Source: Escherichia phage vB_EcoP_PAS59. From it: a stretch of 64,000 nt of DNA. The number at the start of each line of letters is the position of its first letter. The stretch's first letter is position 1. A program made the translations under genes and the position numbers. Shown piece after piece: positions 16,196 through 37,589 of the stretch. A model generated the notes under the pieces. The model did not search any database, was not told the origin of the DNA, and was given only the letters and a program-made list of their open reading frames with translations. The stretch lies in sequence record OQ921332.1, one strand, 5' to 3'.

Positions 16196-16203
16196 AGGCG
16201 AAT

Positions 16204-17154
16204 ATGTCAATCTCCGCATCGATTGCTCCGGTAACACCGGCAGAGGATTTCGGTGAGTCAGTGTTTAAAGGAAGGGCTTGCTTTGGTACTTTTAACTGTA
16301 TGCACATGTACTCTGTTACAGACATTAATGGCGACAGTCTTAGACAAACAAACCTTCGTGATAGAACTTCAGAAATTGAAGTTATTAACTTCTGGCCTCA
16401 CAATTTTTATGGCGTACCGTCTAAAGATATCGAAAGAGCTTTAGTTGAAGCAACAGACATTTTTAACTCAATGTCTTGCTATAAAGATATGTTCTCTGTC
16501 ACTTCGGTGAACTCTATTGCCGTGAACCTTCGAAACCATCCAGCAGACAAGGTGTTTACTGGACTAATGACCATCCGTAGCTATTTGGATGGTGATTTTA
16601 ATGGAATGGAGTTCCTTCAGGAAGGCGTACAAGACAAGGAAGAGTTGCTTAAGCGACAACGAATCGGTTTAGCTCTACGCCTAGCTGGTTTAAGTCGTAA
16701 CTTCTTTGGTCGCTGGTGTTATAGTAATGACGTAGACTCAACTGATGAGTCAGCAGCGACTTATTTTGATGGTGACATGAGTGCAATTGCATTTCTGCCA
16801 CTAATTTGCACCACTGATGAATTTTCTGAAAACGTATGGGTTCAGAATGTGTTCGGTGTTGATGATAACCGAGATGGTTATGTACGAAACCATAATGATG
16901 GAGTTCTCCGTCGTATGGCACGTCGTCGTGACCAAGACCCTGACCATTATGAGAGTATGAGTGAGTGGTTGCGTCTCTGGTCAACTTGTGCAGGTCACAA
17001 GCGAGAAGTATTAGATCAGCGTATGGACAGAATTACTGTTCGCAGTTTTATTGAACGTCTGATGCAAGCAGTACCTTCCTCAATGACACCAGAAGAAGCT
17101 GGTGCCCGTGTTGTTTCCCTTTTTGATGAACTCGTGGAGTATTACAATGACTAA
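16204..17154 (+). CDS. Conserved protein of the amidoligase operon (316 aa), unknown function
   Basis: ORF; overlaps the next start. Confidence 0.75.
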   Translation: MSISASIAPVTPAEDFGESVFKGRACFGTFNCMHMYSVTDINGDSLRQTNLRDRTSEIEVINFWPHNFYGVPSKDIERALVEATDIFNSMSCYKDMFSVTSVNSIAVNLRNHPADKVFTGLMTIRSYLDGDFNGMEFLQEGVQDKEELLKRQRIGLALRLAGLSRNFFGRWCYSNDVDSTDESAATYFDGDMSAIAFLPLICTTDEFSENVWVQNVFGVDDNRDGYVRNHNDGVLRRMARRRDQDPDHYESMSEWLRLWSTCAGHKREVLDQRMDRITVRSFIERLMQAVPSSMTPEEAGARVVSLFDELVEYYND

Positions 17155-17953
17155 GCGCGCTTTCCTTATTGGCTCTGACCCTGAAATGTTTGTTCGTACT
17201 GCTTCCGGTATTATCACCTCTGTGGCTGGTAAGCTGGGCTGTTCTAAAGATAATAAAATTGATCTGGCTCCTGATGTTCGTCTTCAAGAAGACAACGTTC
17301 TGGCTGAATTCGATATTAACCCACAGAAAGGGTTTGAAGCGTTTGATGATAATATTCAGCGTGGTATTGATCTGACTAACAAAGTTCTCAATGAACGTGG
17401 CATGGAGGCAGCACTTGGGATTAGCTCTCATGTGTTCACTTCAGAAGAACTTGAATCATTCCACCCGTCAGCTTTTGTATTTGGCTGTACTCCTGATTTC
17501 AATGCCTTCACTGGACAAAAGAACCCTTCACCAGTCGCAACCGATAAGGGTTTGCGTACTGCTGGGGGTCATGTGCACCTTGGTGTCTCCGGGACTTTAG
17601 AGATTACTCGACAAACTCAAATGATGTTGGGTGTGTTATGTGATTACTTCCTGTCCTTGCCAGCTGTGATCATGGATAAAGACACTCGTCGTAAAGAGTT
17701 GTACGGAAAGGCTTCTGCCATTCGCTACAAAGATTACGGTATTGAATATCGTTCTCTTTCTAACTTCTGGATTGGTGATAAGTCCACTCGCAAGTTTGTT
17801 TACGAGCAAGTGGATAAGGTTGTTCAGGGTTGTGATATGGAAGTGTTGATGTCACTTCACTCTCGCCTTCCAATTGAAAAGCTTCATAACATCATCAACA
17901 GCAACGATGTTAAAGAAGCGGATAAATTCTCCTCTAAACTCCAGATTGTATAA
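17147..17953 (+). CDS. Putative COOH-NH2 ligase (phiEco32-like amidoligase type 2)
   Basis: FLIGSDPEMF...EFDINP...GCTPDFNAFTG...GGHVHLG...EYRSLSNFW pattern, recalled from the phage COOH-NH2 ligase family. Confidence 0.55.
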   Translation: MTKRAFLIGSDPEMFVRTASGIITSVAGKLGCSKDNKIDLAPDVRLQEDNVLAEFDINPQKGFEAFDDNIQRGIDLTNKVLNERGMEAALGISSHVFTSEELESFHPSAFVFGCTPDFNAFTGQKNPSPVATDKGLRTAGGHVHLGVSGTLEITRQTQMMLGVLCDYFLSLPAVIMDKDTRRKELYGKASAIRYKDYGIEYRSLSNFWIGDKSTRKFVYEQVDKVVQGCDMEVLMSLHSRLPIEKLHNIINSNDVKEADKFSSKLQIV

Positions 17954-17962
17954 GGTGATATT

Positions 17963-18589
17963 GTGAGCTTGTTAAGAGATTTTCAACACTATTATTGTGG
18001 AACATGGATTGCTCAGCGATCACCTGATGGTAAAAACCTCCCTCTATATGTGCTTGATGTTCGTCAGCAAGGTAACTTTGATATCGACGACTACTCACAC
18101 GACGCTGAAAGGTCTTTAGTGTTTGAGGCGGAACGCTGGACTAAAAACTCTGAAGGTCAGTTTGAACGTCAGATTGTTAGTAATATCCCAGTGTTTGATC
18201 ACAGCCTCATTCTAGAGTCTCCAGATGTAGGATACCTTCAGCATGGTAATAACATGGTGAGCTGGACCCATATCAACCCTGTTCGTCAGCGAGCTAAAGG
18301 CTTGATGGGGAATAAACTTCGTGGTGCTGCACCTTCTCTCGGACGTTCGATTCCGGGTGATTTGGTGTACAACTTGTTTAATCCAGAGTTTGAAGGGTTG
18401 GTTACTCGTTTCATCTATATCAACCCTGTCGATGGAAAAGTGTATTACAAAGGGGCTTACGTTGGAAACGTGCTTCTTGAAGCTGGCTATGGCGACAACG
18501 GTCGCCAATCTTTAAACCTTCTGGAGAAGTTCAAGCACATTTCTTCAGACCTGTCATCATATAATGTAGAGTTGGTGGAATCACTATGA
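17963..18589 (+). CDS. Conserved protein of the amidoligase operon (208 aa), unknown function
   Basis: GTG start after AAGGTGA; ATGA-coupled to the next gene. Confidence 0.65.
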   Translation: MSLLRDFQHYYCGTWIAQRSPDGKNLPLYVLDVRQQGNFDIDDYSHDAERSLVFEAERWTKNSEGQFERQIVSNIPVFDHSLILESPDVGYLQHGNNMVSWTHINPVRQRAKGLMGNKLRGAAPSLGRSIPGDLVYNLFNPEFEGLVTRFIYINPVDGKVYYKGAYVGNVLLEAGYGDNGRQSLNLLEKFKHISSDLSSYNVELVESL

Positions 18590-19686
18590 CAACCGTAGCA
18601 CAAGTTTTTGGATACCGTAACCCTCGCTTATCTGAACCGCATCCAAGCATTGCTTTTCAGTGTGGTGTTGGTATTGAGTTAGAAGTCGAAGGTACTACTG
18701 ACATTGACGTTGATATGTGGGTTTGTACTGAAGACGGCTCTCTTCGTGATGGTTGTGAGTTAGTGTGTTCACGACCTTACAACGGTGAAGAATTACTTCG
18801 TGCTATTAACAATCTGAGTGAAGCAGTACAGGATTCTGGAGCCGAGGGGACTTGGCGCTGCTCCACTCACGTTCATATGGATATGCGGGACGCTGATAGT
18901 AATATCCTTAAGAAAGTTATTCTTGGGTGGACGTTCTATGAAAAGATGATGTTCAAATGTTCTGGATATCATCGTTACCGTAGTAACTTCTGCCCAGCTT
19001 TTGCTGTTGTTCAAGCTCAAGTTATGAATGCTTCATCAGCGTTCAACCGAGATGGGGAAGATTTCTTCCGTACTCTTGTTAATAGCTGGGACAAGTATAC
19101 CTCCCTTAACCTGTTGCCTCTATCTCAGTTTGGTTCTGTTGAGTTTCGTATTTCAGAGCCGAAGTGGAAAAAGAGTCAGCTGCTAAATCTGGTCAATCGC
19201 TTCTTGGTTCTCAAGAAACTGGCTGTTGAATATGCAGATTTAGATAATGAAGCTTATGTTGAGAAGTTGAATGAGCTGCGCTTCGCTCCTATGATTCAAC
19301 ATCTACCTCTAGACTATACTCCAAGAGATAGCGATCTCACTGAAGGGTATCGTCTTGCCCGTGATATTCTGTTCTGTCGTGAGCAATCTGTAACTTTGGT
19401 TGGTCGTGTTCGTGTGCAACAGACTGGCCCTGATGGTGAAGTCCTTATCAACTTACGTGACATGAATGACTTCTATGGTTTCTTGGGATATGTGCGCGGT
19501 AATGCCAACACTGTCTATGAAGAGATCATGACCTACTACACCCCTCAGATTGAAAGCACTCGAATCGCAACGGTTCGTGAAATTCGTCACATGTTTGCAT
19601 TGATGCGTGAATCAGGTAGCAGTGATAATAACATCACTGATTACATTCCAGACCATCTGGAAATGCAATTAGAACGACTGCTGTAA
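18586..19686 (+). CDS. Putative amidoligase (glutamine-synthetase-like COOH-NH2 ligase fold)
   Basis: GVGIELEVEG...EDGSLRDGCELV...STHVHMD...GSVEFRI motifs typical of the Amidoligase_2 family. Confidence 0.6.
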   Translation: MTTVAQVFGYRNPRLSEPHPSIAFQCGVGIELEVEGTTDIDVDMWVCTEDGSLRDGCELVCSRPYNGEELLRAINNLSEAVQDSGAEGTWRCSTHVHMDMRDADSNILKKVILGWTFYEKMMFKCSGYHRYRSNFCPAFAVVQAQVMNASSAFNRDGEDFFRTLVNSWDKYTSLNLLPLSQFGSVEFRISEPKWKKSQLLNLVNRFLVLKKLAVEYADLDNEAYVEKLNELRFAPMIQHLPLDYTPRDSDLTEGYRLARDILFCREQSVTLVGRVRVQQTGPDGEVLINLRDMNDFYGFLGYVRGNANTVYEEIMTYYTPQIESTRIATVREIRHMFALMRESGSSDNNITDYIPDHLEMQLERLL

Positions 19687-19763
19687 CACAATGGGCGCTC
19701 TGATAAAGGGCGCATTTAAAGGTTAATTAGATGAAAGGGTTTACCCTTCAGGTGGATTAGAAA

Positions 19764-21797
19764 ATTTGTGGTATCGTATTAGCTGGCGGCAACATGACCT
19801 CAACAGATTTGGATATTTTCAACCAACTTCTGTATGCTGGTGTTTTCCGTGGACAGCACTCAACTGGTGTGTTTGGTCAGCGTAAAGGTGAAAAGCAAGT
19901 CTTCTCTTATAAAGAAGCTCTTCCTTCTTATGCTTTTATGCTCCAGACAGAATATACAAATATTACCAAAGGGCTTACGAACTACGTAGTTCCTCCTTCG
20001 TGGATTGTTGGTCACAGCCGACATGCCACTCGTGGGGCTGTCAATGCTCGAAATGCTCACCCATTTACTCACGGGGATATTACTCTGGTTCATAATGGAA
20101 CCCTGTTAGATCAAGATCTCCTTCCTGACAGTAAGCGTTTCGAAGTTGATAGTGAAAACATCTGCCACTCAATTAATACCATTGGAGCAGCAGAGACTAT
20201 CCAAAAACTGGATGGTGCATTCACTTTGATTTGGCATGATGCTAAAGACAACACGCTTCACATTATCCGTAATGATGAGCGTCCTTTCCACCTAGCCCGT
20301 TGTGGTTTAGATTGGTTTGGGGCTTCTGAAGAAGCTATGCTTATGTGGATTTTAGAGCGTTCTAAATCCCACAAGAACCGTATCAATGACCACTTCGAAT
20401 GTAAAGTGGGAACTGAGTATATCTTTGATGTGTCTAACAGTCGTATGACTCTGGTTCAAGAGGTGGAGCACAAGCTTCCGGTTTTTACGATAACGAGTCG
20501 CTGGGGCGGCTATTACTCGAACTCCTCTCTATATCAGAACCGACAGACAAACAAATCAAGCAGCAGCACAAGCGACATTTACGGAAACAAAGACGACAAG
20601 CCCGGCGTGACAAGCGGAGACATTCGTCGTCGTAAAGCGATTGAAGACCAGAACAAACTGGCTGCCGATCGTGGTCTTCCTTATCGTCGTGATGGTCGTG
20701 TGGATATTATTCCTCACGAGTTCCATGCTTATAACAACACAGATCGTGGTAAGATGGTTGGTTACATCTACGACGATAAAGCCCAAGAGTATGTCGAAGG
20801 GGATGTTCACAACGTAGCCAAAGATGAATATCTTAAGGCTCTTGAAAACCCAAAGGTAGTATATCGCGGGACGATTGCTTGTATCTCCGAAGTGGACAGT
20901 ATGATTCGCCTCGTACTAACTTCAGGGCTGTTTGTTGATGCTACAGATAAGGAGCCTCAAAGCACTACTGCTGATTTTGATGATGATATCCCTTTTGATG
21001 CAGAGGACTCCTTCATCACTAAAAATGGTGTAGAAGTCACTCGTAAGTTCTGGGAATCTCACTCTCATGGAGATTGTGGTGGCTGTGATAAGCACATTGA
21101 CTGGAAAGATGCTCGTAAGGCTGTGTTTGCTTACCAAGCGTACTGGCATCCAGAATGCTTCGAAGCGTTGTCTAAAACCTCTGAAGAGGAAGAAGACGTA
21201 CCTTTGGGTGTATGTGCTGTCTGTGGTGAAGTCAAGACTGATTTCGAGTTTGACAACGAAATGAGTAAACTTCGTGGTGAAGATATTTGTTATATCTGCT
21301 CCAAAGAAATCAAAGATAAAGTAAAAAATGTTACTCTGTCTGAAGGTTATATTTGGACTAAAGCAGTAGACACAACTAATCCGCGTCGTCCTGAAGTGGC
21401 TGTTCGTGTTGATGAACGTATGCTTAGCCGTATGATTGTAATGGTCAGCTCAGCAAAACGTTCAGGGGATATTACACTCGCAGATGTTCCTAACTCATAT
21501 TTGGAAAAACGTGGTGGCGATACTTATGCCATTTCCGTTTACGGTCCAAAGAATGCCCCAAAGGAGGTACCCGCTGAGAAAGCGGAGACATTTCCAGAAA
21601 AATCAACCTCTCTCCGAAAAACAGTTGTCAGTTATGACGGACAACGAACAGCTGAGTTCACAAAAGCCCTCTGGACTTCAATTGGGTTTTGTGCAGTCTG
21701 TTATAAACAAATTCCGTGGCGTGATGCAGAAACTTGCTCACTAAACAAAGAAAATAGAGTGATCTGTAATTCAGATTACTGTAAAGGTAAACACTAA
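19764..21797 (+). CDS. Class-II (Ntn) glutamine amidotransferase with a C-terminal multi-Zn-ribbon extension; ATT initiation codon
   Basis: In-frame (ATT)CGIVLAGGN... precedes the ATG at 19794; stop TAG at 19758-60; AGGTGGA lies 7 nt upstream of the ATT; GHSRHATRG, HPF and LVHNG motifs. Confidence 0.7.
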   Translation: MCGIVLAGGNMTSTDLDIFNQLLYAGVFRGQHSTGVFGQRKGEKQVFSYKEALPSYAFMLQTEYTNITKGLTNYVVPPSWIVGHSRHATRGAVNARNAHPFTHGDITLVHNGTLLDQDLLPDSKRFEVDSENICHSINTIGAAETIQKLDGAFTLIWHDAKDNTLHIIRNDERPFHLARCGLDWFGASEEAMLMWILERSKSHKNRINDHFECKVGTEYIFDVSNSRMTLVQEVEHKLPVFTITSRWGGYYSNSSLYQNRQTNKSSSSTSDIYGNKDDKPGVTSGDIRRRKAIEDQNKLAADRGLPYRRDGRVDIIPHEFHAYNNTDRGKMVGYIYDDKAQEYVEGDVHNVAKDEYLKALENPKVVYRGTIACISEVDSMIRLVLTSGLFVDATDKEPQSTTADFDDDIPFDAEDSFITKNGVEVTRKFWESHSHGDCGGCDKHIDWKDARKAVFAYQAYWHPECFEALSKTSEEEEDVPLGVCAVCGEVKTDFEFDNEMSKLRGEDICYICSKEIKDKVKNVTLSEGYIWTKAVDTTNPRRPEVAVRVDERMLSRMIVMVSSAKRSGDITLADVPNSYLEKRGGDTYAISVYGPKNAPKEVPAEKAETFPEKSTSLRKTVVSYDGQRTAEFTKALWTSIGFCAVCYKQIPWRDAETCSLNKENRVICNSDYCKGKH

Positions 21798-21808
21798 GAG
21801 GTATAGTT

Positions 21809-22042
21809 ATGGAAGTTCGTAAACTGATGTTGGATAACGTGGTAACTACCCGTCGTATTCCGATGACAAGCACAGGATGTGATAACCTCCGAGCAATTCA
21901 GAAGTGGATGCAAGAAGGTATTGGGAAGCTGGTTGACTCTCCAGTAGAAATCCCTTTTCCAACCGTTATCAATAACGTGTTGGCTGACTATGTTAAAATG
22001 AAGGGGATTAAAGTTGAGCCTCATGTCAAGCAAGGGAGCTAA
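21809..22042 (+). CDS. Hypothetical protein
   Basis: ORF after AGAGG. Confidence 0.6.
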   Translation: MEVRKLMLDNVVTTRRIPMTSTGCDNLRAIQKWMQEGIGKLVDSPVEIPFPTVINNVLADYVKMKGIKVEPHVKQGS

Positions 22043-22244
22043 GCCTCACCTGACAATGCTGGAGTATCAACAACTCCGACTTCAACAACTGGTAACGGAG
22101 CAGCGAAAGCTGTATCCGTTTGCTTTTAACTTAATCGACTCTCCAAGTGATGCCCAAGAAGACGAAATGTTCGCCGAGTATTGGGCAATCGAAGCTAAAA
22201 TTCAATCCTGTCGTAACGAAATTCTTAAACTAAAAGGTATCTAA
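22014..22244 (+). CDS. Hypothetical protein (start uncertain; ATG 22056 possible)
   Basis: ORF bridging to the ATP-grasp gene. Confidence 0.45.
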   Translation: MSLMSSKGAKPHLTMLEYQQLRLQQLVTEQRKLYPFAFNLIDSPSDAQEDEMFAEYWAIEAKIQSCRNEILKLKGI

Positions 22245-22246
22245 AA

Positions 22247-23494
22247 ATGACTACTCGTATCCGTGTTCTTCCGTATGGCCCGTCTGATTCTGTTAACGCT
22301 CTGGTATCTGCTATCAGTGATACTATCCGTGATGAACGTATCAACGCTAACATAATGGGTCTTCTTTCAGAGAACAGTCGCTGGCGTTCTCGTGAGGATG
22401 ATGTGGTTGTGAACTACGGGAACCGTCGCTATCCTGAATCCTTCTTTGGTTCTGCAACTGTCCTTAACCGTACCGCAGCCTTACATATGGCAGCGAACAA
22501 ACGTCGTGCTTTCAGCGTGATGGACCAAGCAGGTGTTAAAACTGTTGAGTATACAGATGTTCAAGAGATTGCTCAGGAGTGGTCAAACTCTGGCAACATT
22601 GTGTATGAACGTCATGAACTGACTGGTCACTCTGGTTCGGGTATCGTTGTTGTTGAGCCTCGTGATTCAATTGGTCAAGCTGAACTGTACACCAAAGGTA
22701 TTCAAGGTCCACGTCGTGAATGGCGTGTCCATGTGTTCAAAGGTGTTATCACCTATGTTCAGAAGAAGATTCGTCGTAACGGCTATCGTGAAGACCCTAA
22801 CTATCGTGAAGATGTTCGTAACCATCACACTGGTTGGGTTTACTCAAGTTCCTTCACAGACGCTCCAAATGATGCATCTCTGATCAACGCAGTGAAGGCC
22901 GTTGAATCGATGGGTCTGGATTTTGGTGCAGTTGATATCATTACCAAAGGCCGAGAAGCATGGGTACTGGAAGTTAACACAGCACCGGGCCTGACTGGTA
23001 CAACTCTGGATATCTACCGTCACAACATCCTTGAGTTTGTTAAAGCTCAAAATCCTCTCTATACTCCTCAGTATAAAGTGGGTTACCAGACTCCTGTTGA
23101 AGCTCCAATCGAAGACGGAGATGGAGAGTTGGTAGATGACAGCGAAAGCGCTAATGATGAAAACTTTGCACTGGAAGGTCAGGTAGCACAGCCGGTTGAG
23201 TTGGTAGATGTAGTTCCTGAAGAGATGCAACTGGAAGGTCAGATGAATACTCAAACTATTCGTAATGCACCTACTGGTTACACTTTATCTCGTGGTTATT
23301 GGATTGCAGATATCCGTCATGTCCATAACAACCTGCAACCGAATGCAATGTCTTCCAATGTCATTTTGTTCTGTGATGGTCGTAACTTCTACCGTAGTGG
23401 CTGGAACGTTCCGGTCAATCCAGTCCAGATTCATAACCCTCGCAAGTTAGAATCTGTCAATGTTGAAGGTAGCGAAGTAGCAGTAACTCTGTAA
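22247..23494 (+). CDS. ATP-grasp (RimK-like) ligase with a C-terminal extension
   Basis: ELTGHSGSGIVVV...EWRVHVFKG...FGAVDIIT...AWVLEVNTAPGL, typical ATP-grasp motifs. Confidence 0.75.
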   Translation: MTTRIRVLPYGPSDSVNALVSAISDTIRDERINANIMGLLSENSRWRSREDDVVVNYGNRRYPESFFGSATVLNRTAALHMAANKRRAFSVMDQAGVKTVEYTDVQEIAQEWSNSGNIVYERHELTGHSGSGIVVVEPRDSIGQAELYTKGIQGPRREWRVHVFKGVITYVQKKIRRNGYREDPNYREDVRNHHTGWVYSSSFTDAPNDASLINAVKAVESMGLDFGAVDIITKGREAWVLEVNTAPGLTGTTLDIYRHNILEFVKAQNPLYTPQYKVGYQTPVEAPIEDGDGELVDDSESANDENFALEGQVAQPVELVDVVPEEMQLEGQMNTQTIRNAPTGYTLSRGYWIADIRHVHNNLQPNAMSSNVILFCDGRNFYRSGWNVPVNPVQIHNPRKLESVNVEGSEVAVTL

Positions 23495-23520
23495 TTAAAT
23501 TAAACAAAAAGGAATTTGTA

Positions 23521-23763
23521 ATGTTGTCTATCGAAGATTTGATCAGCCGTGGAATGACCGAAGAAAAAGAGCCTCTGATTGTAGGCTCTCGTAAAGCTAT
23601 CAACCAACTCTGTGAAGAGTTCGGTATCACAAATAAGAGAATGATTGGTAATCAGTTCTCTGCAATCATCACCTTCCTCAAACGAGGTGATAAATATTCA
23701 ATGGAAAGTGCTGAGCGTATCATCGCAATTGCACAAGCAGATAAGGGAGTAACAAGTCTGTGA
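23521..23763 (+). CDS. Hypothetical protein
   Basis: ORF after AAAGGAA. Confidence 0.6.
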   Translation: MLSIEDLISRGMTEEKEPLIVGSRKAINQLCEEFGITNKRMIGNQFSAIITFLKRGDKYSMESAERIIAIAQADKGVTSL

Positions 23764-23945
23764 ATAAATATACAATCATGTTTCGTACAGTAACATCAGA
23801 AGGGAATATTCAATCTCTGGATATTCAAGCAGACCGCTTTGAATCACTTGGAACAAATGTCAATTTCTTCCGAGGCGCAGAGCTAGTAGGTACGTTCCAA
23901 TCTGATGTATTAACTGGTGTGATCAAACACTTCGAAGTAGAATAA
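23760..23945 (+). CDS. Hypothetical protein
   Basis: GTG start overlapping the previous stop. Confidence 0.5.
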   Translation: MNKYTIMFRTVTSEGNIQSLDIQADRFESLGTNVNFFRGAELVGTFQSDVLTGVIKHFEVE

Positions 23946-24011
23946 TTTGCTTTAGCCTCTTCGAAAGAGGAGGCTAGTTCGAATTTAACTGAAACACTAA
24001 AAGGTAATATA

Positions 24012-24443
24012 ATGTCTGATAAAGTACTAGTTGCAACTTACGGAAGCTTGAGAAAAGGTCAACACAACCACGCTATCAATGCTCGTGCAGGTGGTGTGTC
24101 TATTGGTGAAGGGTGGACAGTAAACAACTGTAACCTGTATCAGTATTGCACAGCATACTTCCCAAGTGTATCTTTGGAGCATGACAGCAATGGTAAGCCT
24201 GTTCGTGTAGAAGTCTTTGAAACAACCCAAGCTGGTCTGGAAGGTCCGTATGACGGTCTGGAAGGTCATCGTGGTAATGATAACCCATACACCTTTTATA
24301 AGCGTACACTGATTCCAGTATTATTGGACAGCGGTGAAACTGTGGAAGCGTGGATTTATCACATCGACGAAGAACAAGATGTTCTGGTTGAATCGGGTGA
24401 CTGGACAGCATATCTGGCAGGTGAGAAGGATGACAGTAACTGA
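24012..24443 (+). CDS. Gamma-glutamyl cyclotransferase (AIG2/GGACT-like)
   Basis: VATYGSLRKGQHNH...YFPSV...VEVFE...LDGLEGH...YKRTLIPV...AWIY pattern. Confidence 0.7.
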   Translation: MSDKVLVATYGSLRKGQHNHAINARAGGVSIGEGWTVNNCNLYQYCTAYFPSVSLEHDSNGKPVRVEVFETTQAGLEGPYDGLEGHRGNDNPYTFYKRTLIPVLLDSGETVEAWIYHIDEEQDVLVESGDWTAYLAGEKDDSN

Positions 24444-24671: not shown

Positions 24672-26462
24672 ATGTCAAAGATCATTTTGGGAGACACAGG
24701 CTGTAAAGAGTGCATCTCTCATGGTCGTGATAAGACCCATAATCACATGATTCTCTTCCGAAATGAAGAGTCCGGTGAGGAGTGGGGTTCATGTAACAGA
24801 TGTGGTGCGTATGAAATCTTCGAGAAAGGAACGACGCCCACTCCTAATGAAAAGAAAGAGCTGTCCCCTGAAGAACTTCGAGAAGTCTTAGACGATTGCT
24901 TAGAGCTTCCTCAGGGAGAGTTGACTCGTCGCTTAATCCCTAAAGCTGTGTCTGAACGCTATGGATGCCGTATTGGTTTAAGTCAAACAGACGGTCAAAC
25001 TCCTGACAGCTACTTCTTCCCTCGTGAACGTGATGGGAATATTGTTGGATATGAAGTAAAACTTCTAGACAGCAAGAAATTCTATTATGTAGGTAATGTG
25101 AAAGAAGCCGACTTATTTGGTATGGCTCAAGCACAACGTGGTGACGTATACAACAAGAAACTCTTCATCTTTGAAGATCCTCTCTCTTGTATGTCTGGGT
25201 TCCACGTACTTACCGCGTTTACAAACGCAACTAACATCAAACCTGCTTGCGTCTCTCTTCCGTTCGGTGCAGGTTCAATCTCTTCTGTCTTATCAAGAAA
25301 CCGTGATTTTATTAATGGTTTCGAGGAGATTGTACTCTGCATGGACAATGATGATGCAGGTGAGATTGCTTTAACTAAGGGTCGTTCTCTGTACCCGCAT
25401 GTTAAGTTTTCAAGGATTCCAAAAGGTACGTTCACTTATAACGGACAAGAAAAGGAAATCAAAGATGCAAACGACATGTTACTGGCAGGGAGAGGTCAAG
25501 AGCTTTTCAATAATCTTAAGTATTCAGCTAAGCGGGAATCTCCTGCTGGAGCTGTTACAGTTTTTGATTGCCTCGAAGATGCTCTGAAGAAAGCGGAATG
25601 GGGTATTCCTTATCCGTGGAAAACTCTTAACGACATGACCTTTGGTATTCGTTGGGGAGAGATGGTTGCAATCGGCGGTGGTGTTGGTTCAGGTAAAACC
25701 TTAATCGCACACGAACTGGTAGCATGGCTTTGCCTTGAGCATGGTTTTAATGGTGGTGGCTTCTTCTTGGAAGAGAAGGTAGGCATGTCTGTTAAGAACA
25801 TTGCTGGTAAGTCTGCATCTGTTCCATTTCACCGACCAGATGTTGAGTATGAAGAAAGCCAGCTACGAGATGAAGCACTTCGATACGCTGATAAGTTTTT
25901 CTTATACGACAACTTTGGACAGAATGAGTGGGAAGACATTAAGCAGTGTATTCGCTTTTGGGTAGTTGAGAATCAATGTAAGTTTATCATCCTTGATAAC
26001 ATCACTGCATTGGTATCTCACTTAACTCCATCCGAAGTGAATACAGAAATCAGTAAGATTGCTTCAGAGCTTGCTGGTATGTGTAAGGAATTAGACTTCA
26101 CTGCTTTTGTGTTATCTCACTTGAATGCTCCGGCGGGCGGTGCCCCTCACGAAGAAGGTGGTCAGGTTAAAGAAGTACAGTTTACTGGCTCACGTTCATT
26201 AATGCGCTGGTGTCAATGTATTATCGGTTTCGAACGTAATAAACAAGCGGATGGGTTAGGTAAAAACTTGTCAATCATACGTCTGCTCAAAGAGCGTAAC
26301 TATGGACAGACGGGGGTTTGCTATACCAAATATATTAACGAAACAGGTCGTCTTGTAGAACGAGAAGATCATGAAGTTGATGAAGATAATCCGTTTACAG
26401 TCACCAACGGAGAAGATGCAGCTTCCTTACTCTCACAAGAAGGGGAGGCGCGTCCGTGGTAA
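24672..26462 (+). CDS. Bifunctional DNA primase/helicase (T7 gp4-like)
   Basis: N-terminal Cys4 Zn finger, TOPRIM (FEDPLS...MDNDDAG), Walker [10 protein letters not shown], Walker B IILDNI. Confidence 0.9.
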
Positions 26463-27006: not shown

Positions 27007-28479
27007 ATGATTAAGATTCCATTATCTGAATTGAACCTTCAAGAAGGAGAAGCCCTCAGTGTAGGGCTTGACCTGATTCGTAATTTGATCAGAGATAACG
27101 TAGTCCCTGATGGCATCTATCCTGTTATTGCAGGTGGTGCTATCCGTGATACGTTCTTTCAAAATAGAACTCCGAATGATGTTGATATCTTCCTAGTTCA
27201 AGGAGGATTACGTTGGAACGCTCGTCAGGAAAATAGCCCTGCTAACGTAGGTAATGCTGCACTTTTCCTTGACAACTTCTTATCTTGGACAGAAAGTAAA
27301 GGGCTTCAGGTTACATCTCGACTAATTCAGCCTGTTAACGGGACAACCTATGCTGAAGCGCTTTTCACTTTCCAAGAGATTCTGGAAATCGAGATTGATC
27401 AAGTTAAAATCCAGATGATGATTAATCTACCTTTGGATATGGATACTTTAAGCCGTCGCTTCCCTATGATCTGTCAAGGGTTTATGACTCTTGGTAATCT
27501 GTATGTGTCAAACGAAGGTTTGTTTGCAATGTCATACACTCGTGACATTCCTGTGGTGTCCAGTCGTGAAATGAAGTATGTTCACAAGAAGTGGCCTGAA
27601 GCAACTGTTGCAGTTTATAGCAGTTCTACCGAATATATGCACCTTGCAATGGGAGCTTTCGGTGAGCCAGAAGTTCACCTGATTAGTGATTTAGTTGGAC
27701 CTATGGCTGGTGTAAATTTATATCAGAATCAGCGTCGTCATTATACCCTGAAGATGATGGAAACTACATTAAACATTCCTCAGGAAAGGGGTCGTAGTTA
27801 TCTGGACGAGGAAGTTAACCTACAGACAGAATGGTCTAGTGGATTAACCACTATAGGTGCTGAAGCAATTACACGACCTTGGACTCCGGGAACTAACAGA
27901 CGAGATCTTCAAGCTTTTAATGAAGAAACTTCTCGAACTGTTCGAGGAGGTGTTGTAGGGTATAACGTACAACCTCATGAAAGACCTCGTGATACTTTCA
28001 CTGGTAGTTTTGGTAGTGCACACTCTTCTGGAATGGATACTCGTACATGGCATGTCCAAGGAGGAACTGCTCGTCCTATTCCCTCTCCGTCAATGGATGA
28101 TTTGCAGCGTTCTCGTCGTTCATGGGAAACAGTAAGCTCTGTTGTTCAGGGTCTACGTGCTAGTGATATTGAACGTGTAGAAGTTGGTGATTTGCCAACC
28201 TCTACAGAAGATCGAGTATCAGCTATAGCGGCTCGTGAAGCTGCTCATATTGGTTTTGCATCATTAGCTAATGACGCTAACGAAGCTCCTCGACCTGTTG
28301 GTCGTCGTAATGGTCTAGCTCACTCTGACACTGCACTTGGTGCAGAACTACGAGCAGCAGCTCGTGAGCTATCTGGTGAGCTTCACAACAACCTGGCAGG
28401 TGTTACACTATCTCGTGAAACAGCTCGTAATATGATTAATAATTTGGCATCATCTGTACAAGGAAACAGAAACTCATGA
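27007..28479 (+). CDS. Pol-beta-superfamily nucleotidyltransferase (CCA-adding / poly(A) polymerase-like head) with a long low-complexity C-terminus
   Basis: AGGAIRDTFFQNRTPNDVDIF matches GG.(V/I)RD-x9-D.D of class II tRNA nucleotidyltransferases. Confidence 0.5.
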   Translation: MIKIPLSELNLQEGEALSVGLDLIRNLIRDNVVPDGIYPVIAGGAIRDTFFQNRTPNDVDIFLVQGGLRWNARQENSPANVGNAALFLDNFLSWTESKGLQVTSRLIQPVNGTTYAEALFTFQEILEIEIDQVKIQMMINLPLDMDTLSRRFPMICQGFMTLGNLYVSNEGLFAMSYTRDIPVVSSREMKYVHKKWPEATVAVYSSSTEYMHLAMGAFGEPEVHLISDLVGPMAGVNLYQNQRRHYTLKMMETTLNIPQERGRSYLDEEVNLQTEWSSGLTTIGAEAITRPWTPGTNRRDLQAFNEETSRTVRGGVVGYNVQPHERPRDTFTGSFGSAHSSGMDTRTWHVQGGTARPIPSPSMDDLQRSRRSWETVSSVVQGLRASDIERVEVGDLPTSTEDRVSAIAAREAAHIGFASLANDANEAPRPVGRRNGLAHSDTALGAELRAAARELSGELHNNLAGVTLSRETARNMINNLASSVQGNRNS

Positions 28480-29009
28480 GTCTTTTAGGTTCTCAAGAAT
28501 TACACAGCGTTATTGATAATGGCTTTTTAGATGCGGAGCATAAATATGTTAACGCTGCTAGTGTGGATATCCGTATTGGTGATACTATCCTTGTTGAAGA
28601 GCAGGCTGATGGTATTGTTGACATTGATGCTAAAGAAAACCTCAAGTGGAAAGAAGTAAAAATCCCTGAAGATGGTATCGTTATCACTCCGGGACAGTTC
28701 TTCTTAGCTCACTCAATGGAAGAGTTTAACCTTCCAGACAATATTTCAAGTCTGTTTGTACTCCGCTCCTCAATGGCTCGTTGTGGTTTAAACCATCTCC
28801 ATGCTGGTTGGGCTGATGCAGGGTTTAATAACAGTAAGCTGACCTTTGAGTTCCATAACGTTACTCACAATCACAGCTTACGAGTTCGTGCTGGGATGCG
28901 TGTCGGTCAAATGGTTATGTTTGAACACTCTCACGCTGGTGATGATTCCTATGCAGTGAAGGGTCGTTATAACAACTCCGATGGGGTTGTTGCTTCTAAA
29001 GGTGTATAA
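28476..29009 (+). CDS. dcd: dCTP deaminase
   Basis: ASVDIRIG...LRSSMARCGL...AGWADAGF...LEF.N motifs. Confidence 0.8.
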   Translation: MSLLGSQELHSVIDNGFLDAEHKYVNAASVDIRIGDTILVEEQADGIVDIDAKENLKWKEVKIPEDGIVITPGQFFLAHSMEEFNLPDNISSLFVLRSSMARCGLNHLHAGWADAGFNNSKLTFEFHNVTHNHSLRVRAGMRVGQMVMFEHSHAGDDSYAVKGRYNNSDGVVASKGV

Positions 29010-29501: not shown

Positions 29502-29831
29502 ATGTTAGATTTGAGTAAAGTGGCCCCGCCATCTGAAGAGATTAGCAAAGCTAAAGTTATGCAGCAGTTCTATCATCGTGACATGCTTGGTCGTTATATC
29601 AAGAATCGTGATGTTGTTGCATGGTCTATTGGAAACCAAGGCTATCTTCTCAAAGTGTTGCAAGTTACTGGCTCAACAGCCAAGCGAGTCAAAGTCTATG
29701 ACCCTGAGATGGGGCGTTCTAAATCGGTAGACCCACAGAATTGCATTGTTATTACACAGCAGGTCATGGATAACATTGCTCGTAATGTAGCTAATTCAAC
29801 TAACTTAGAAGGGGATGCACCTAATGCATAA
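29502..29831 (+). CDS. Hypothetical protein
   Basis: Internal ATG of ORF 29484..29831 after CAGGAGAGAG. Confidence 0.6.
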   Translation: MLDLSKVAPPSEEISKAKVMQQFYHRDMLGRYIKNRDVVAWSIGNQGYLLKVLQVTGSTAKRVKVYDPEMGRSKSVDPQNCIVITQQVMDNIARNVANSTNLEGDAPNA

Positions 29832-30390
29832 TAATGTCTTCGACTTACCAGAACTAACAAGAGTGGGTTCTAGTAATCCATTCTCTACTACTGATTCTTC
29901 TATCTCTCGTCTTGAGGGAATGAATAAACTGATTAGCAGTAACAGCCTAGAGCACATTCTTTGTGGTGTGCAGGCTAACCTTGAACTTCTACACATCAAA
30001 GCAAAGAACTACCACTGGAACGTCTCTGGAGCTGGTTTCCAAGGTGTTCATGGGATGTTCGATGAGTTAGAAGATTATGCTCGTGAGGCAGGCGACCGAA
30101 TAGCAGAGCGTATGCGCTTCCATTGTGTTAAGGTGGATGCCACTGCTAGTAACTATTTAGGTCACGCTTGGTTCCGAGAAGGTAACGCTGATCTCGACAT
30201 GGACGGTATGCTTTCCGACATGTGCATGACTCTTATGTGTATCATTGAGAAGATGGACGAGTTTGATTCAGACTTGTGCACCTATCCAGTTGATCAGAGT
30301 ATGCTTCAAGAAATTAATGAAGGTCTTGGCAAGTTCTGTTACTTTGTCAAGAGCAACATGTCCCACTCTGGTGGTGATGTGTCTTACTAA
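29815..30390 (+). CDS. Dps-like ferritin-fold protein
   Basis: KNYHWNVSGAGFQGVHGMFDELEDYAREAGDRIAERMR matches the Dps signature (H.W.v.G..F..vH..f.e......D.iAER). Confidence 0.7.
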   Translation: MHLMHNNVFDLPELTRVGSSNPFSTTDSSISRLEGMNKLISSNSLEHILCGVQANLELLHIKAKNYHWNVSGAGFQGVHGMFDELEDYAREAGDRIAERMRFHCVKVDATASNYLGHAWFREGNADLDMDGMLSDMCMTLMCIIEKMDEFDSDLCTYPVDQSMLQEINEGLGKFCYFVKSNMSHSGGDVSY

Positions 30391-30840: not shown

Positions 30841-31017
30841 GTGAAACTAAACCTACCTGAAGAATTACAAGCACATGCCATTATCGTTAGTGGCTGTGTG
30901 ATGGGTCTTGGTCAGACAAAGAAGATTGCTCATGACTTAGCAAAAGGTCAGTATAAATCTTTTATTGTTGTTCCTGCTACCCAGCGTCATATCAATCTGT
31001 TTATTAACAAGGAATAG
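30841..31017 (+). CDS. Small protein (58 aa)
   Basis: GTG start 9 nt after AAGGA; fills the gap before the thioredoxin gene. Confidence 0.4.
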   Translation: MKLNLPEELQAHAIIVSGCVMGLGQTKKIAHDLAKGQYKSFIVVPATQRHINLFINKE

Positions 31018-31018
31018 A

Positions 31019-31294
31019 ATGAGTAAAGTAATTAAGTTTTATAGTGATCAGTGTGCTCCATGTAAAGCAATGGCTCCTACCTTTGAGAAGGTTGTTAAGG
31101 AGTTTGATGTAGAAGTGGAAGAGATTAACATCCTTGAAGGTGATGGTCGTGAACAAGCTGTTAAGTATGGTGTACGAAGTATCCCTGCTTTCGTTGTGCC
31201 TGACCGTAACAGTGGTGCACACTACAGCCTCTCCGGTATGCAGACTGAAGCAAACCTGAAAGCATTTTTGGATACAGCTCTAGGCAATAAATAA
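31019..31294 (+). CDS. Thioredoxin
   Basis: Internal ATG of ORF 30965..31294; FYSDQCAPCKAMAP (CxxC) ...IPAF. Confidence 0.8.
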   Translation: MSKVIKFYSDQCAPCKAMAPTFEKVVKEFDVEVEEINILEGDGREQAVKYGVRSIPAFVVPDRNSGAHYSLSGMQTEANLKAFLDTALGNK

Positions 31295-31309: not shown

Positions 31310-31801
31310 ATGAATAATATTGACCCGTCAATAAAAGAAGCTCTTGATTACGACCCTTTGACTGGAGATTTCCGATGGGTTAAAACTTATGGAAAAGGAC
31401 ACAAAGGGTCTATAGCTGGTTCTGTAAATACCAATGGGTATTTGAGAATCGTTTATAAAGGTGCTAGATACTACGCTCATCGACTTGCTTACTGGTGGGA
31501 CACTGGATTGCTTCCTGAAGAAGTAGATCACATAGACCGCAACAGGATAAACAACAAAAGAGAGAATCTTAGGGGGACTACTAGATCAGGAAATGGCCTA
31601 AACAAAGTAGCTCAGAGTAATAATTTATCAACCGGAGTGATTGGAGTGACTGTCCATAGAAGGAAAAGTGGCTCTATTGCTTACCGGGCGGTATTTAAAT
31701 CTAAGCACATAGGACTCTTCTCAACCATAGAAGAAGCCTCTAGGGAATATAATAAAGTCAAGGAGACTTACATAAATGACAATCAAAGCTTCATTAATTG
31801 A
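31310..31801 (+). mobile_element. Free-standing HNH (HNH_3) + AP2-domain homing endonuclease gene
   Basis: YAHRLAYWW...VDHIDRNRINNKRENLR; C-terminal GVIGVT...YRAVF..KHIGLF.TIEEA; overlaps the thyX start by 26 nt. Confidence 0.8.
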
Positions 31802-32423
31802 TAACTTCGGTTCAGATCTTACAGTAGTCAATGCTGCTCGTGTAACTATGGGGGTAGAAAGGGAAGAATTAAAAGAAAGTGACACTCGTCTAATAAATTT
31901 TCTAGCTCGGGAACGGCACGTAAGTCCTTTTCGTCACCCACAAGCGAGCTTCAGATGCGAAGCTCCTATAGCAATTGCACGACAGTTACAGAAGCATCAA
32001 GTTGGTTTTTCTTGGAACGAGATGAGTCGTAGATATAAAGATGGAGCAGTGGATATTTTCATACCTAAAGAAATCTTCTCCCGTCCAGATGATCTACATT
32101 CTGGTTCTGGAATACTTCTTGAAGGGGAGGAAGAGGCAAAAGCTTTAGCTTTGTTTAACTCTGCGTACGAGGCATCTCTTGCTAGTTATGACGAATTGAT
32201 TAAGTTCGTAGCTCCTGAACAAGCTAGATTTGTTTTACCTCAAGGTATGGTAACTACTTGGTACTGGACTGGTAGCTTGTATGGCTGGTTTGAATTGTGT
32301 CGTCAACGACTATCATCCCATGCTCAATATGAAGTTCGACTATTTGCTCAGTCATTAGATGAAGAGATGGCTAAACTCTATCCAATCTCATGGGCAGCTT
32401 TGAAGAAAACTTTGGAGAGTTAA
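31776..32423 (+). CDS. thyX: FAD-dependent thymidylate synthase ThyX
   Basis: ERHVSPFRHP...IARQLQKHQVGFSWNEMSRRY (ThyX RHR...S motif region). Confidence 0.85.
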   Translation: MTIKASLIDNFGSDLTVVNAARVTMGVEREELKESDTRLINFLARERHVSPFRHPQASFRCEAPIAIARQLQKHQVGFSWNEMSRRYKDGAVDIFIPKEIFSRPDDLHSGSGILLEGEEEAKALALFNSAYEASLASYDELIKFVAPEQARFVLPQGMVTTWYWTGSLYGWFELCRQRLSSHAQYEVRLFAQSLDEEMAKLYPISWAALKKTLES

Positions 32424-35274: not shown

Positions 35275-35290
35275 CTATAAGGAGTGGGTG

Positions 35291-36982
35291 ATGGATAACC
35301 CTGATAAGTTACCTTTCATAACGGAGATGACAGTCGCTGATATAATCTCAAAACAGGCGAAGCATGGAGTCAACTTCAACAGAAGAAACGCTCGGTGGTT
35401 TGTTCATCTTCTCAAAGAGATTATTGTCAATATTGATAAAGAACTGATTCCTCTCCTCCCCAAAATGCGGGTGGATGGTTCAACTTATTCTAAACCTTTT
35501 AAGAAATCAGGTGCTTTACAGAAGTGGCCTCAGCTCTATTGCGATAGGGTTGGTCTTAAAAGAGAAGATATCGGTGGGGCGTTTACTTGCGTTGAGTATG
35601 TAGATTTTGACCCATCAAAAGATGCACGTATTAAAGAAGCCTTGATGGATGAAGGTTTTATACCTCCAGAGTGGAATTATTCTAAGAAACCTTGGAATAC
35701 TTTTGAAATTCGTAAAGCTATGAAGAAGTATGGTACATACTCTGCATGGTATTCTGCTTGGATTCGAGGTAACGCTAAAGAGAAACAGACAGCAGAGATG
35801 ATAGATGCTGATATCCGAAGGTTTTTGGATAAGCACTTCCGTTATCACACTGTCAATTATATGAAAGCCTATGTCAGCGGTTTAGGTCTTAACCCTAACA
35901 GGAAGAAGCCTGTAACCTTTGATGAAATCAAAAAAGCTTTGGCTACATCAAACAAGTGGCCTACAGCCCCTACAAACCTTGAGGAGACTCTTGAAGAGGG
36001 GCTTGGGGGTGAACTAGGGGGTGTAGGAAGTTTGCTTAAGAGACGCGTTGTAGCGGCTCACAGGCTAGGTTTGATTAGCGGGCTTATCGACAAGGAACGT
36101 AAAGATGGTAAACTGTCCGCCGAAGCTAATAGCTGCGCTACTCCGACATTTCGTTTTAAACATCGCATTGTTGTTAATATTCCTTCTCGCGGTTTGTTTG
36201 GTCACGAGTGCCGCAGTCTTTTTCAATCTGACTATTCCTCAGACGATAGTCATAACCATCCTTTCATCATTACCAACCATATCCCTGATGGGTGTTACGT
36301 ACGAAAGGGTACTAACATTATCTACGAAATGGGAAAACCGGGCAAGAAAGACAAACCAATAGGTGCTTATAAATTTTATGTACCTGCTGGTCGTGAAGTC
36401 TTCTTAGGTTATGATGGCTCTGGTCTTGAGCTGAGGATGCTTGCTCATTACCTTATCAAAGAGTGTCGTGAGATGCTCGCTGAAGCAGAGCGGGAAAACA
36501 ACCCAGCTAAGAAACGGGAAGCTGAACGCGGTCTAGCTTCTGCTGTTATGTACAGAGATATTCTTTTAGAAGGGGATATTCACTCACATAACCAAAAACT
36601 TGCTGGCCTTCCTACTCGTGATAATGCTAAAACGTTTATCTACGCATTCAACTACGGAGCTGGTGACGCTAAGTTAGGAAGCATCGTAGGTGGTGGCTCT
36701 GATGAAGGGGCTGTCATGAGGGCAAGATTCTTAGCAGAGAATCCTTGTATTGCAATTCTTATTGAACGTATGACAGAGAAAGCACAAAGTGGATACATCT
36801 ACGGTGTGGATGGACGTCGTATTACAATGAGGAGGGATGCAACTGGAAAGGTTATGGTTCATAAAGCCTTAAACACCCTCTTACAGAGCGCTGGGGCGAT
36901 TGTTATGAAGTATGCAATGCTATTCCTTAATAAATGGATTGAGCGTGATGGTGTTCGTTGTGCGAAGGTTATTGACATGCAT
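35291..36982 (+). CDS. Family A DNA polymerase, polymerase domain, exon 1
   Basis: T7 gp5-like; motif A region GYDGSGLELR, motif B NAKTFIYAFNYGAG; the frame breaks inside motif C after ...VIDMH. Confidence 0.85.
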
Positions 36983-37589
36983 AAACTTCATTGTGCATGT
37001 AAAAGTTGGTGAACTCGGTGAAACCCGACCATTAAGTTGAGGGCAATACCGAGCTAAGCTATTAGGAGGTGATATGGCTAAGAAAGATCTAGTGTTAGAA
37101 ACTACTGACACAGGATGTATCATCCCTATCTCACACAAACTTAATAAAGATGGTTACTTCAGAAAGGTAATAGATGGCAAATGGGTCATGTATCACCGAT
37201 ACGTCATGGAAGAAAAGTTTGGAAAGATTCCTGATGGGTTTGAAGTAAACCATAAATGCAAGAACAGAGCTTGCTGTAACACAGACCACCTAGAGATTCT
37301 ATGGGGGAGTGCTCATGCAATAGAATCCAATACAGGTAGAAACAGAGAAAGACAGGAAGCTGCTAAAGAATTCTGGCTTAATAATGAATGTACCGGTGTT
37401 GCTCTTGCGGAAAGATTTGGTGTGAGCTTTGGAATCGCTTGTAGATGGATTCGAAAGTGGAAAGTGTAGAGACTATCCTTTGGGAGTAGGGGGTTAACAG
37501 GGAAACCCTCGAAGCGCCAACAACAGCAAATTAGCTATGCTGTTATGATATAGTCCGATACCCGAAGTAATTTGGGAATAACATAAATG
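36983..37589 (+). mobile_element. Group I intron carrying an HNH homing endonuclease, inserted in DNA polymerase motif C
   Basis: Exon 1 ends in U (..CAT); the intron ends in G (37589); R-like TAGAGACTATCC (37468-37479) and S-like ATGATATAGTCC (37545-37556) elements; joining the exons restores MH-DEGQ (HDE motif). Confidence 0.7.
37074..37469 (+). CDS. Intron-encoded HNH homing endonuclease
   Basis: EVNHKCKNRACCNTDHLE His-Me finger; C-terminal HTH-like ALAERFGVSFGIACRWIRKW; GGAGGTGA RBS. Confidence 0.8.
   Translation: MAKKDLVLETTDTGCIIPISHKLNKDGYFRKVIDGKWVMYHRYVMEEKFGKIPDGFEVNHKCKNRACCNTDHLEILWGSAHAIESNTGRNRERQEAAKEFWLNNECTGVALAERFGVSFGIACRWIRKWKV

Follow-up and report, generated by a model that had tools for sequence, protein, structure and literature searches.

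Introduction

Two of the small nucleotidyltransferases (NTases) carried by T7-like podophages have been found to be toxic to bacteria: fHe-Kpn01 Gp22 (182 amino acids, aa) in E. coli on overexpression (PMC7291057), and Emajogi gp22 in P. putida at high induction, with some homologues of the latter annotated as 'Gad2 family' (bioRxiv 10.64898/2026.09.15.751885). Papers on Pectobacterium phages have named such small enzymes transfer RNA (tRNA) nucleotidyltransferases, by homology only (PMC7693777). Gad2 of SPbetaL7 is itself a predicted NTase (400 aa), toxic, and needed for escape from the Gabija defence (bioRxiv 10.1101/2023.05.01.538930), by a mechanism that a review of February 2026 describes as 'yet to be elucidated' (PMC12904381). 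Here we analyse a stretch of 64,000 nucleotides from Escherichia phage vB_EcoP_PAS59 (OQ921332.1; the whole of this stretch is called the window below) and, within it, a 490-aa NTase that an initial annotation, made from the letters alone, had read as a CCA-adding-enzyme-like protein with a disordered tail of 250 aa inside the replisome block.

By its sequence the source phage is assigned to the Gordonclarkvirinae, a group of prolate podophages resembling phiEco32, and stands near the genus Suseptimavirus. The gene has been seen before in this group: the SU10 orthologue has been annotated as a nucleotidyltransferase since 2014 and was detected by mass spectrometry among the early gene products (PMC4281155), the RefSeq and BASEL records name the gene 'nucleotidyltransferase', and the BASEL-2 paper noted both the conserved pair of dcd and NTase genes in the replication locus and the unusual resistance of the Gordonclarkvirinae to defences (PMC11990801). 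We found no functional study of the protein in the literature on phiEco32, Kuravirus, Gabija and phage NTases, a search that did not cover the phiEco32 genome and transcription papers; the paper on the svsR sRNA has no bearing on it. The annotation of the gene and the existence of such phage NTases were known; what is new here is that the family is a long-tailed variant, lacking motifs B and D, that is tied to replisome genes across many podophages and may be kin to Gad2.

Results

Residues 42-62 of the protein (AGGAIRDTFFQNRTPNDVDIF) hold the motif GGAIRD-x9-DVD, which matches the polymerase beta (pol beta) NTase signature proposed in the initial annotation. A six-frame translation of the window has a single instance of the pattern GG.[VI]RD-x8-13-D.D and 200 shuffles have none, and G43, G44, R47, D48, D58, D60 and F62 are invariant in 30 homologues with identities down to 21%, so motif A is not a chance match. 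Across the same homologues the hG[GS] turn followed by a [DE]h[DE]h strand, as expected of pol-beta enzymes, is present as invariant A-G43-G44 and D58-V-D60-I. An AlphaFold2 model built on the 30-sequence alignment folds residues 1-285 (predicted local distance difference test, pLDDT, about 90) and shows the alpha/beta fold of NTases, and this N-domain is under strong purifying selection, with a ratio of non-synonymous to synonymous substitution rates (dN/dS) of 0.03-0.12. That the protein is a stand-alone pol-beta-type NTase is well supported, and it is probably catalytically active.

[quoted passage not shown] When the full model was compared with the PDB by Foldseek, nearly every one of the 35 best matches was a class II enzyme that adds CCA, CC or A (E 4e-5 to 1e-3), so that the nearest solved structures are those to which the pol-beta signature had pointed. 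Structural comparison scores were highest for E. coli PAP I (10.6), followed by the CCA-adding enzyme of B. stearothermophilus (9.5), the Aquifex enzyme (9.4) and the CCA-adding enzymes of Thermotoga (9.0) and human (8.7), against 7.7 or less for FAM46, CdnE, terminal uridylyltransferases (TUTases), Rel, OAS and pol beta/lambda. The superpositions on CCA-adding enzymes and PAP extended over 137-170 residues at 11-16% identity, which is the head domain only. In profile comparisons, hhalign against a small CCA/PAP alignment gave E 3e-6 to 8e-6 with motif A alone aligned confidently, and motif A was likewise the only stretch that aligned confidently to E. coli Cca (residues 5-27), to the CCA profile and to Gad2. 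A Pfam scan of the window NTase returned no match at E up to 1, PF01743 (PolyA_pol head) included; this domain scored below threshold in SU10 (18.9 bits against 23) and, at E <1, in 18 of 30 relatives (best E 2.5e-4). Pfam, NCBIfam and PADLOC scans of the NTase protein gave nothing usable, and a profile search of the PDB sequences returned chance matches only, to eL24 and a lectin.

Motif A is common to both sides, reading GGxVRD-x9-DxD in class II CCA-adding enzymes and PAP I and GGAIRD-x9-DVD here, whereas motif B (RRD), motif D (EDxxR) and the neck, body and tail domains are theirs and are missing from the phage family. RRD, which recognises the ribose 2'-OH, was present in 0 of 24 family N-domains, as was [ED]DxxR, the protein template for C and A; both motifs are retained in PAP I (RRDFTIN and EDPVR in the PcnB sequence). 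Neither Pfam nor structure comparison detected the neck, body, tail or RNA-binding domains of CCA enzymes, and the C-terminus is disordered. We therefore do not file the protein as a tRNA CCA-adding enzyme: the class II head of the initial annotation is borne out by the fold and the Foldseek matches, and the CCA-adding identity is not. Database labels such as 'tRNA nucleotidyltransferase' and 'CCA-adding' on such genes are unjustified by the defining motifs.

The folded domain has conserved features of its own (Table 1). The beta-hairpin motif [IFYV]Q.[MI] is found in 24 of 24 relatives; its Q136 is placed opposite the D-[VI]-D of the small phage NTases and the invariant Q88 of Gad2 by low-confidence profile alignments, and opposite E79 of the B. 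stearothermophilus (Bst) CCA enzyme by a manual comparison that is also of low confidence. The third metal ligand may be E123 or Q136. By position, F-P-x-x-C-x-G is probably a degenerate counterpart of class II motif B (RRDFTINA), and low-confidence alignments alone pair it with FD[YF]T[LV][NC] in the small NTases and in Gad2. The pattern [DE]xxY..[KR]K of helix 186-197, present in 23 of 24 relatives, marks a candidate nucleotide-binding helix in place of motif D (EDxxR), a correspondence, like that with R151-x-x-K-Y-x-x-K of Gad2, that was drawn by eye and by low-stringency hhalign (mact 0.05) and is not significant alone.

Among viral proteins, the closest structural company of the protein beyond its own family consists of small phage enzymes. 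Foldseek against predicted viral structures (BFVD) returned a kuravirus orthologue first and then NTases of 167-224 aa from Autographiviridae and other podophages, among them Providencia PS3, Aeromonas phiAS7, Caulobacter Cd1 and Lullwater, Pectobacterium PP2 and DU_PP_II, Dickeya Ninurta, Pseudomonas LKD16, Pantoea LIMEzero and Ralstonia RSB3, annotated as 'Poly A polymerase head domain' or 'nucleotidyltransferase'. Such proteins make up PHROG 1614, of which LKD16 ORF16, gp16 of the phiKMV group, gp20 of gh-1/phiPSA2, fHe-Kpn01 Gp22 and Emajogi gp22 are examples. The phrog_1614 profile matched LKD16 ORF16 (E 9.5e-40), the family members P0029 (3.5e-11), P0043 (5.3e-9) and P0024 (1.7e-7) over about 110 residues, the window NTase over residues 32-66 (8.4e-6), E. 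coli Cca (4.5e-10) and Gad2 (8.2e-6). With an alignment of seven small NTases as the hub, hhalign linked the family at E 5.9e-7 (its reversed control 0.14), CCA/PAP at 1.6e-10 and Gad2 at 3.5e-5, compared with 0.14-0.62 for the reversed-sequence controls. The family nevertheless has its own cluster, PHROG 12715, and is for this reason a sister of PHROG 1614 and not a member.

Both groups are phage-only, both sit among primase/helicase, ligase and DNA polymerase genes, and they have in common the motif A variant GGAxRD...P.D[IV]D[IVL]. They differ in that the PHROG 1614 enzymes measure 167-254 aa, without the long disordered tail and without the extension at residues 200-285, and carry D-[VI]-D and FD[YF][TN][LI]N where the family carries I-Q-x-M and FPxxC, respectively. 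The small NTase gene directly adjoins genes for primase/helicase, helicase, ligase or DNA polymerase in six of the seven phages examined, so that the head-only class as a whole, and not this phage alone, is marked by its place in the replisome module. Searching with LKD16 ORF16 alone, tblastn found 225 phage records, and a scan of viral contigs with the same query returned only itself. It is well supported that the window NTase represents a divergent, enlarged and long-tailed branch of the head-only NTases of T7-like podophages; the toxicity of two small homologues fits an active enzyme that acts on host molecules.

The long-tailed family is narrow. Scanned exhaustively with HMMER, a set of 1.84 billion representative proteins yielded 28 matches, of which 27 were genuine; the other, P0045, is a 3044-aa repeat protein whose 15 matches to query residues 87-166 (E 1.7e-9) come from 'TTICQGQ...' repeats, and it was discarded as a false positive. 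A word-indexed protein search returned close homologues only and, when repeated with the family profile, four known members and no bridge to other families. With the window NTase as query, 97 phage records were found, and ten loci in IMG/VR, contigs of 82-90 kb among them, match the family profile. Members have a common N-domain of about 200-230 aa and C-terminal regions of 74 to 295 aa that barely align between genera, 18 of the 27 relatives having tails of 74-130 aa.

The position given for the gene in the initial annotation is correct, and its tight coupling is real: the stop TAG of the exonuclease-subunit gene ends two bases before the ATG of the NTase gene, and the NTase stop overlaps the start of dcd (dCTP deaminase) in an ATGA at 28476-28479. 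Annotated genes in SU7, EK010, ECBP2 and Bas86-88 show 84-96% identity to the NTase, and at the DNA level the region shares 93-95% identity with Escherichia phages E20-1, EK010, SU7, Bas86/87, IME267 and ECBP2. The order primase/helicase, exonuclease subunit, NTase, dcd is kept in Kuravirus SU10, Nieuwekanaalvirus EP335 and Bas86 and in the metagenomic relatives L004-L007 and L016, with identity down to 28% (L016 being the one IMG/VR locus in which gene order was checked), and the replisome-block location holds in these distant relatives. That the NTase is a core replication-module gene of the Gordonclarkvirinae and their relatives is well supported.

Table 1. Positions in the window of the NTase gene, its domains and motifs, and the other genes discussed.
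Feature	Position	Strand	Evidence and remarks
tRNA-Arg(UCU)	10110..10185		sole tRNA; 3' CCA encoded
Peptide-ligase and amidoligase cluster	14879..24443		includes two large unassigned open reading frames (ORFs), 14879-16195 and 16204-17154
T7 gp4-like primase/helicase, first of the conserved four-gene order	24672..26462	+	phrog_239 E 3e-174; PF03796
DNA polymerase family-A 3'-5' exonuclease subunit, 182 aa	26456..27004	+	PF01612 E 3.2e-5; phrog_38876, phrog_403
NTase coding sequence	27007..28479	+	ATG start, 490 aa plus stop; phrog_12715 'nucleotidyltransferase', E 4e-163, residues 1-483
Folded domain, aa 1-285: class-II-type NTase head (~aa 1-200) and lineage-specific alpha/beta extension	27007..27861	+	
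Motif A, aa 41-63, IAGGAIRDTFFQNRTPNDVDIFL (helix-turn GG, catalytic D58 and D60)	27127..27195	+	alignment of 30 sequences
Beta-hairpin, aa 122-143; position 123 always E/D, Q136-x-M138 invariant	27370..27435	+	alignment
F-P-x-x-C-x-G, aa 152-158; P153 invariant	27460..27480	+	alignment; corresponding position reads [FM]-P-x-x-[CAS] in the family
Helix aa 186-197, S-R-E-M-K-Y-V-H-K-K-W-P; Y191 and K195 invariant	27562..27597	+	alignment; AlphaFold2 helix 186-195
Disordered tail, aa 286-490	27862..28476	+	pLDDT <50 for 288-440; 24 R, 0 K, 10 D, 14 E, net charge 0
dCTP deaminase (dcd)	28476..29009	+	PF22769 E 1.1e-34; phrog_1663
Ferritin/Dps-like protein	29815..30390		PF00210 E 7e-8; annotated 'DNA binding protein'
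Thioredoxin ORF	30965..31294		
HNH homing-endonuclease-like ORF	31310..31801		
ThyX	31776..32423		
DNA polymerase family-A polymerase subunit	35288..37012		PF00476
HNH homing-endonuclease-like ORF	45226..45741		
HNH homing-endonuclease-like ORF	46618..47121		

Beyond the folded domain, the Arg/Ser/Gly/Ala-rich low complexity and the disorder reported for the C-terminal half were both recovered, over a shorter length than the 250 aa first given: AlphaFold2 folds the protein up to residue 285, leaving a tail of about 205 aa. Residues 266-490 abound in A (10.7%), R (10.7%), S (10.2%), G (8.9%) and T (8.4%) and have no Lys and no Cys; the pLDDT is 30-50 for residues 288-440, with low-confidence helices beyond, and the low-confidence helices of the tail lie at 363-385, 401-425, 443-463 and 470-485. 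Short conserved segments, e.g. M363...S-R-R-x-S-x-T375 and F417, stand within fast-evolving sequence, and the tail dN/dS of 0.21-0.41, against 0.03-0.12 for the N-domain, indicates relaxed purifying selection on real coding sequence. We considered whether a Lys-free tail could be a mis-called or wrong-frame ORF and rejected this; there is no competing long ORF, and the tail is kept as protein in 22 phages with the dN/dS just given. The last 295 aa of the protein contain one Lys, where the other proteins of the window have 5.8% (P about 4e-7), and the tails of the relatives are all Lys-poor (0-2 Lys against 3-28 Arg). Several other proteins of the window are strongly depleted too (0.6-3% Lys against 5.8% pooled; 56694-57728, 53392-54363, 54822-55874, 16204-17154, 18586-19686 and 22247-23494), and we draw no functional conclusion from the depletion for that reason.

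Two further observations concern the tail and its end. When the gene of the window was compared with L001, L010 and L020-L023, it proved to be a recombination mosaic, with an N-domain nearest to Bas86 and ECBP2 (synonymous divergence, dS, 0.09-0.12) and distant from SU7 (dS 0.43), and a tail nearly identical to that of SU7 (dS <0.05) and distant from Bas86 (dS 0.34). Many of the short-tailed relatives (P0026, P0029, P0031-P0035) end in Trp or Phe (GGWTF, IRWQW, TTWDW, RRFNF, REVW, SEYDF and GRSEW), and the primase/helicase of the window has an acidic C-terminal stretch that closes with Trp (...EGEARPW); the window NTase itself ends in ...GNRNS. The aromatic ends of the relatives and of the primase/helicase call to mind T7 gp4 and gp2.5, whose C-termini carry aromatic residues for docking.

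The wider replication block contains a family-A DNA polymerase in two parts, an exonuclease subunit and a polymerase subunit, whose genes lie 8 kb apart with a thioredoxin ORF between them (Table 1); in T7, host thioredoxin is the processivity factor of the DNA polymerase. We examined whether the NTase ORF could be the missing polymerase domain of this split PolA and ruled it out: the PF00476 domain sits 8 kb downstream, at 35288-37012, so the NTase gene is not a misannotated polymerase. One of three HNH homing-endonuclease-like ORFs lies between the thioredoxin and thyX genes, consistent with the synteny 'besides homing endonuclease insertions' that BASEL noted for the locus, and the ferritin/Dps-like gene of the block is kept in SU10, EP335 and Bas86. 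Upstream, the cluster at 14879-24443 encodes a phiEco32-type COOH-NH2 ligase (PF14395), an amidoligase (PF12224), a class II glutamine amidotransferase, a RimK-like ATP-grasp protein and a gamma-glutamyl cyclotransferase besides its two unassigned ORFs, and by its predicted content looks like a peptide-ligation or metabolite pathway. The phage tRNA with an encoded CCA, also reported in the initial annotation, is tRNA-Arg(UCU), which a codon-usage analysis has tied to the heavy use of AGA codons by the phage (PMC9965538).

Discussion

The reading that we favour, tentatively and as something short of probable, is that of a head-only NTase that performs template-independent nucleotidyl transfer in a replication or counter-defence role. 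D58, D60 and a third ligand, E123 or Q136, would bind metal and an NTP or dNTP, and the nucleotide would be transferred without a template onto a 3'-OH, most probably that of a nucleic-acid end. The CCA-selecting motifs B and D would have given way to F-P-x-x-C and R-[DE]-x-x-Y-x-x-K-K, and because of this replacement by family-specific motifs the nucleotide specificity would differ from that of CCA enzymes, and CCA is not the product to be expected. The disordered tail, rich in Arg and free of Lys, would tether the enzyme flexibly to its substrate or to a partner in the replisome, and the role of the enzyme would fall early to middle in infection, in replication or in host takeover and counter-defence rather than in tRNA maturation.

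Several points weigh against this interpretation. Synteny with replication genes in a dense early/middle operon is weak evidence of functional linkage, and the coupling to dcd is not kept in distant relatives, where the gaps are about 20 nucleotides. The residue on the strand of the canonical third carboxylate may be a Gln (Q136), which could weaken or change the chemistry unless E123 compensates. The tail has a net charge of 0 and, being electrically neutral, is not an obvious nucleic-acid binder. Since the structural similarity is limited to the head (137-170 residues), the class of substrate cannot be read from homology, and for this family as for all members of phrog_1614 both activity and substrate are predictions.

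Comparison with Gad2 (OQ921347.1, 109563-110765; L026:1064-2266), likewise a phage-borne NTase, raises the possibility that the window protein is a Gad2-like counter-defence enzyme that neutralises a host nuclease-helicase defence such as Gabija enzymatically. We consider this unlikely as it stands, while noting that such a role would be compatible with the interpretation favoured above and could coexist with it. Motif A of Gad2 (IIAGGAITSLFNNKEINDVDIYF) closely resembles that of the window NTase (VIAGGAIRDTFFQNRTPNDVDIFL), with 41% identity over 41 columns; hhalign joined the two families over 113 columns at 25% identity (Prob 66-78%, E 1.8e-5 to 5.7e-5; reversed controls E 0.04-0.06); the hidden Markov model (HMM) of the family scored each of 120 Gad2 homologues higher than any of 2400 shuffled sequences (median 13.6 bits, top 21.6, against 7.6 for the best shuffled sequence); and phrog_1614 is matched by both. 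The alignment also pairs, in the same order, residues that are invariant in both families (Q136 with Q88 on the same strand, C156-x-G158 with C110-x-G112, and R187-x-x-K-Y191-x-x-K with R151-x-x-K-Y155-x-x-K), Gad2 is toxic on expression, as the small NTases are, and the resistance of the Gordonclarkvirinae to defences (PMC11990801) would be in keeping with such a function. However, once motif A was masked the profile match fell to E 0.083, against 0.11 for the reversed sequence, which is not significant, and the HMMER alignment was limited to motif A. Gad2 has T-S in place of the R47-D48 pair that is common to the NTase family and CCA/PAP, and PF26128, which is on record for 119 of the 120 listed Gad2 homologues, is not on record for the close homologues P0001-P0022. 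The C-terminal halves are unrelated, with no alignment past about residue 210 of Gad2, whose C-terminal half of about 200 aa is Lys-rich whereas the NTase tail is Arg-rich, Lys-free and disordered; Gad2 lies in an anti-defence locus and not in a replisome operon, and we found no papers that link Gabija and Kuravirus. Homology to Gad2 beyond motif A was accordingly dropped from a finding to a lead, the masked match not being significant, and for the same reason Gad2 serves here as a functional lead and not as a family assignment. As a lead, and with the link resting mainly on motif A, Gad2 may be a second divergent offshoot of the same phage stock of head-only NTases.

The remaining readings fare less well. 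The initial annotation put first the repair of tRNA 3' ends damaged by host nucleases, in which the enzyme would restore the CCA end of host or phage tRNAs, and the nearest solved structures being CCA-adding enzymes, the name 'tRNA nucleotidyltransferase' given to small homologues in some database records and the presence of a phage tRNA could all be cited for it. The idea is improbable, and the family falls short on the traits of CCA-adding enzymes: RRD and EDxxR occur in 0 of 24 relatives, neither neck, body and tail nor Pfam RNA-binding domains were detected, the record names are homology transfers and not tests, and every lineage examined places the gene in a DNA replication context. With no RNA ligase or polynucleotide kinase encoded in the 64-kb window to act as a partner, and with CCA encoded in the phage tRNA gene, it has no specific support; E. 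coli tRNA genes likewise encode CCA, and the host already has Cca. Tailing of host or phage RNAs in the manner of a poly(A) polymerase, with homopolymer or short tails steering decay, is slightly less likely still. E. coli PAP I, with its disordered basic C-terminus, provides the model for a head followed by a disordered Arg-rich C-terminus, and the toxicity of the small homologues would fit indiscriminate tailing of RNA; yet PAP I keeps the motifs B and D that the NTase family lacks, and the tail of the latter is not basic, its net charge being 0. The BASEL paper suggested that the NTase and dcd take part in a pathway that modifies DNA or nucleotides; this would explain the restriction resistance of these phages, and the NTase gene adjoins dcd in every member and overlaps it in the phage of the window. 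We regard it as very unlikely, given that dcd, ThyX and dNMP kinase form an ordinary route of dTTP supply, that the small homologues of T7-like phages are not beside dcd, and that we know of no class II-type NTase that modifies DNA bases. Least likely of all, and only barely credible, is synthesis of a nucleotide second messenger or decoy in the manner of CD-NTases or MNT-like phage NTases. There is a precedent in the phage MNT-clade NTases, which make competitor cyclic dinucleotides that block TIR-STING (bioRxiv 10.1101/2022.06.09.495361); their motif, GS-x-AY[GAN]T-x4-SDxD, is not found in the NTase family, which has GGAxRD...DxD instead, PADLOC gave no match at E up to 10 for the window, SU10 and EP335 proteins, and CCA/PAP heads outscore CD-NTases in structure comparison.

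A bolder reading would unite Gad2 and the head-only enzymes of T7-like phages with the family studied here in one phage-specific clade of replisome-associated terminal transferases. In such a scheme DNA or primer 3' ends would be chemically capped or extended at forks or genome termini and so be hidden from host nucleases that sense ends, for example Gabija or RecBCD-linked systems, with the Lys-free tail tethering the enzyme to the split polymerase or to the primase/helicase. We give the scheme as a whole only a slim chance of being right. If true, it would offer a mechanism for Gad2 and identify a core, conserved counter-defence step in podophages with linear genomes.

Hundreds of podophage genomes carry head-only NTases derived from the lineage of CCA/PAP, nearly always among replisome genes. 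Gad2, a possible distant relative, has a proven counter-defence function, and the NTase described here belongs to the core genes of phages known for their unusual resistance to host defences. Isolates that infect K-12 exist (BASEL Bas86-93), making direct genetic and biochemical testing of this conserved component of podophage replication modules feasible.

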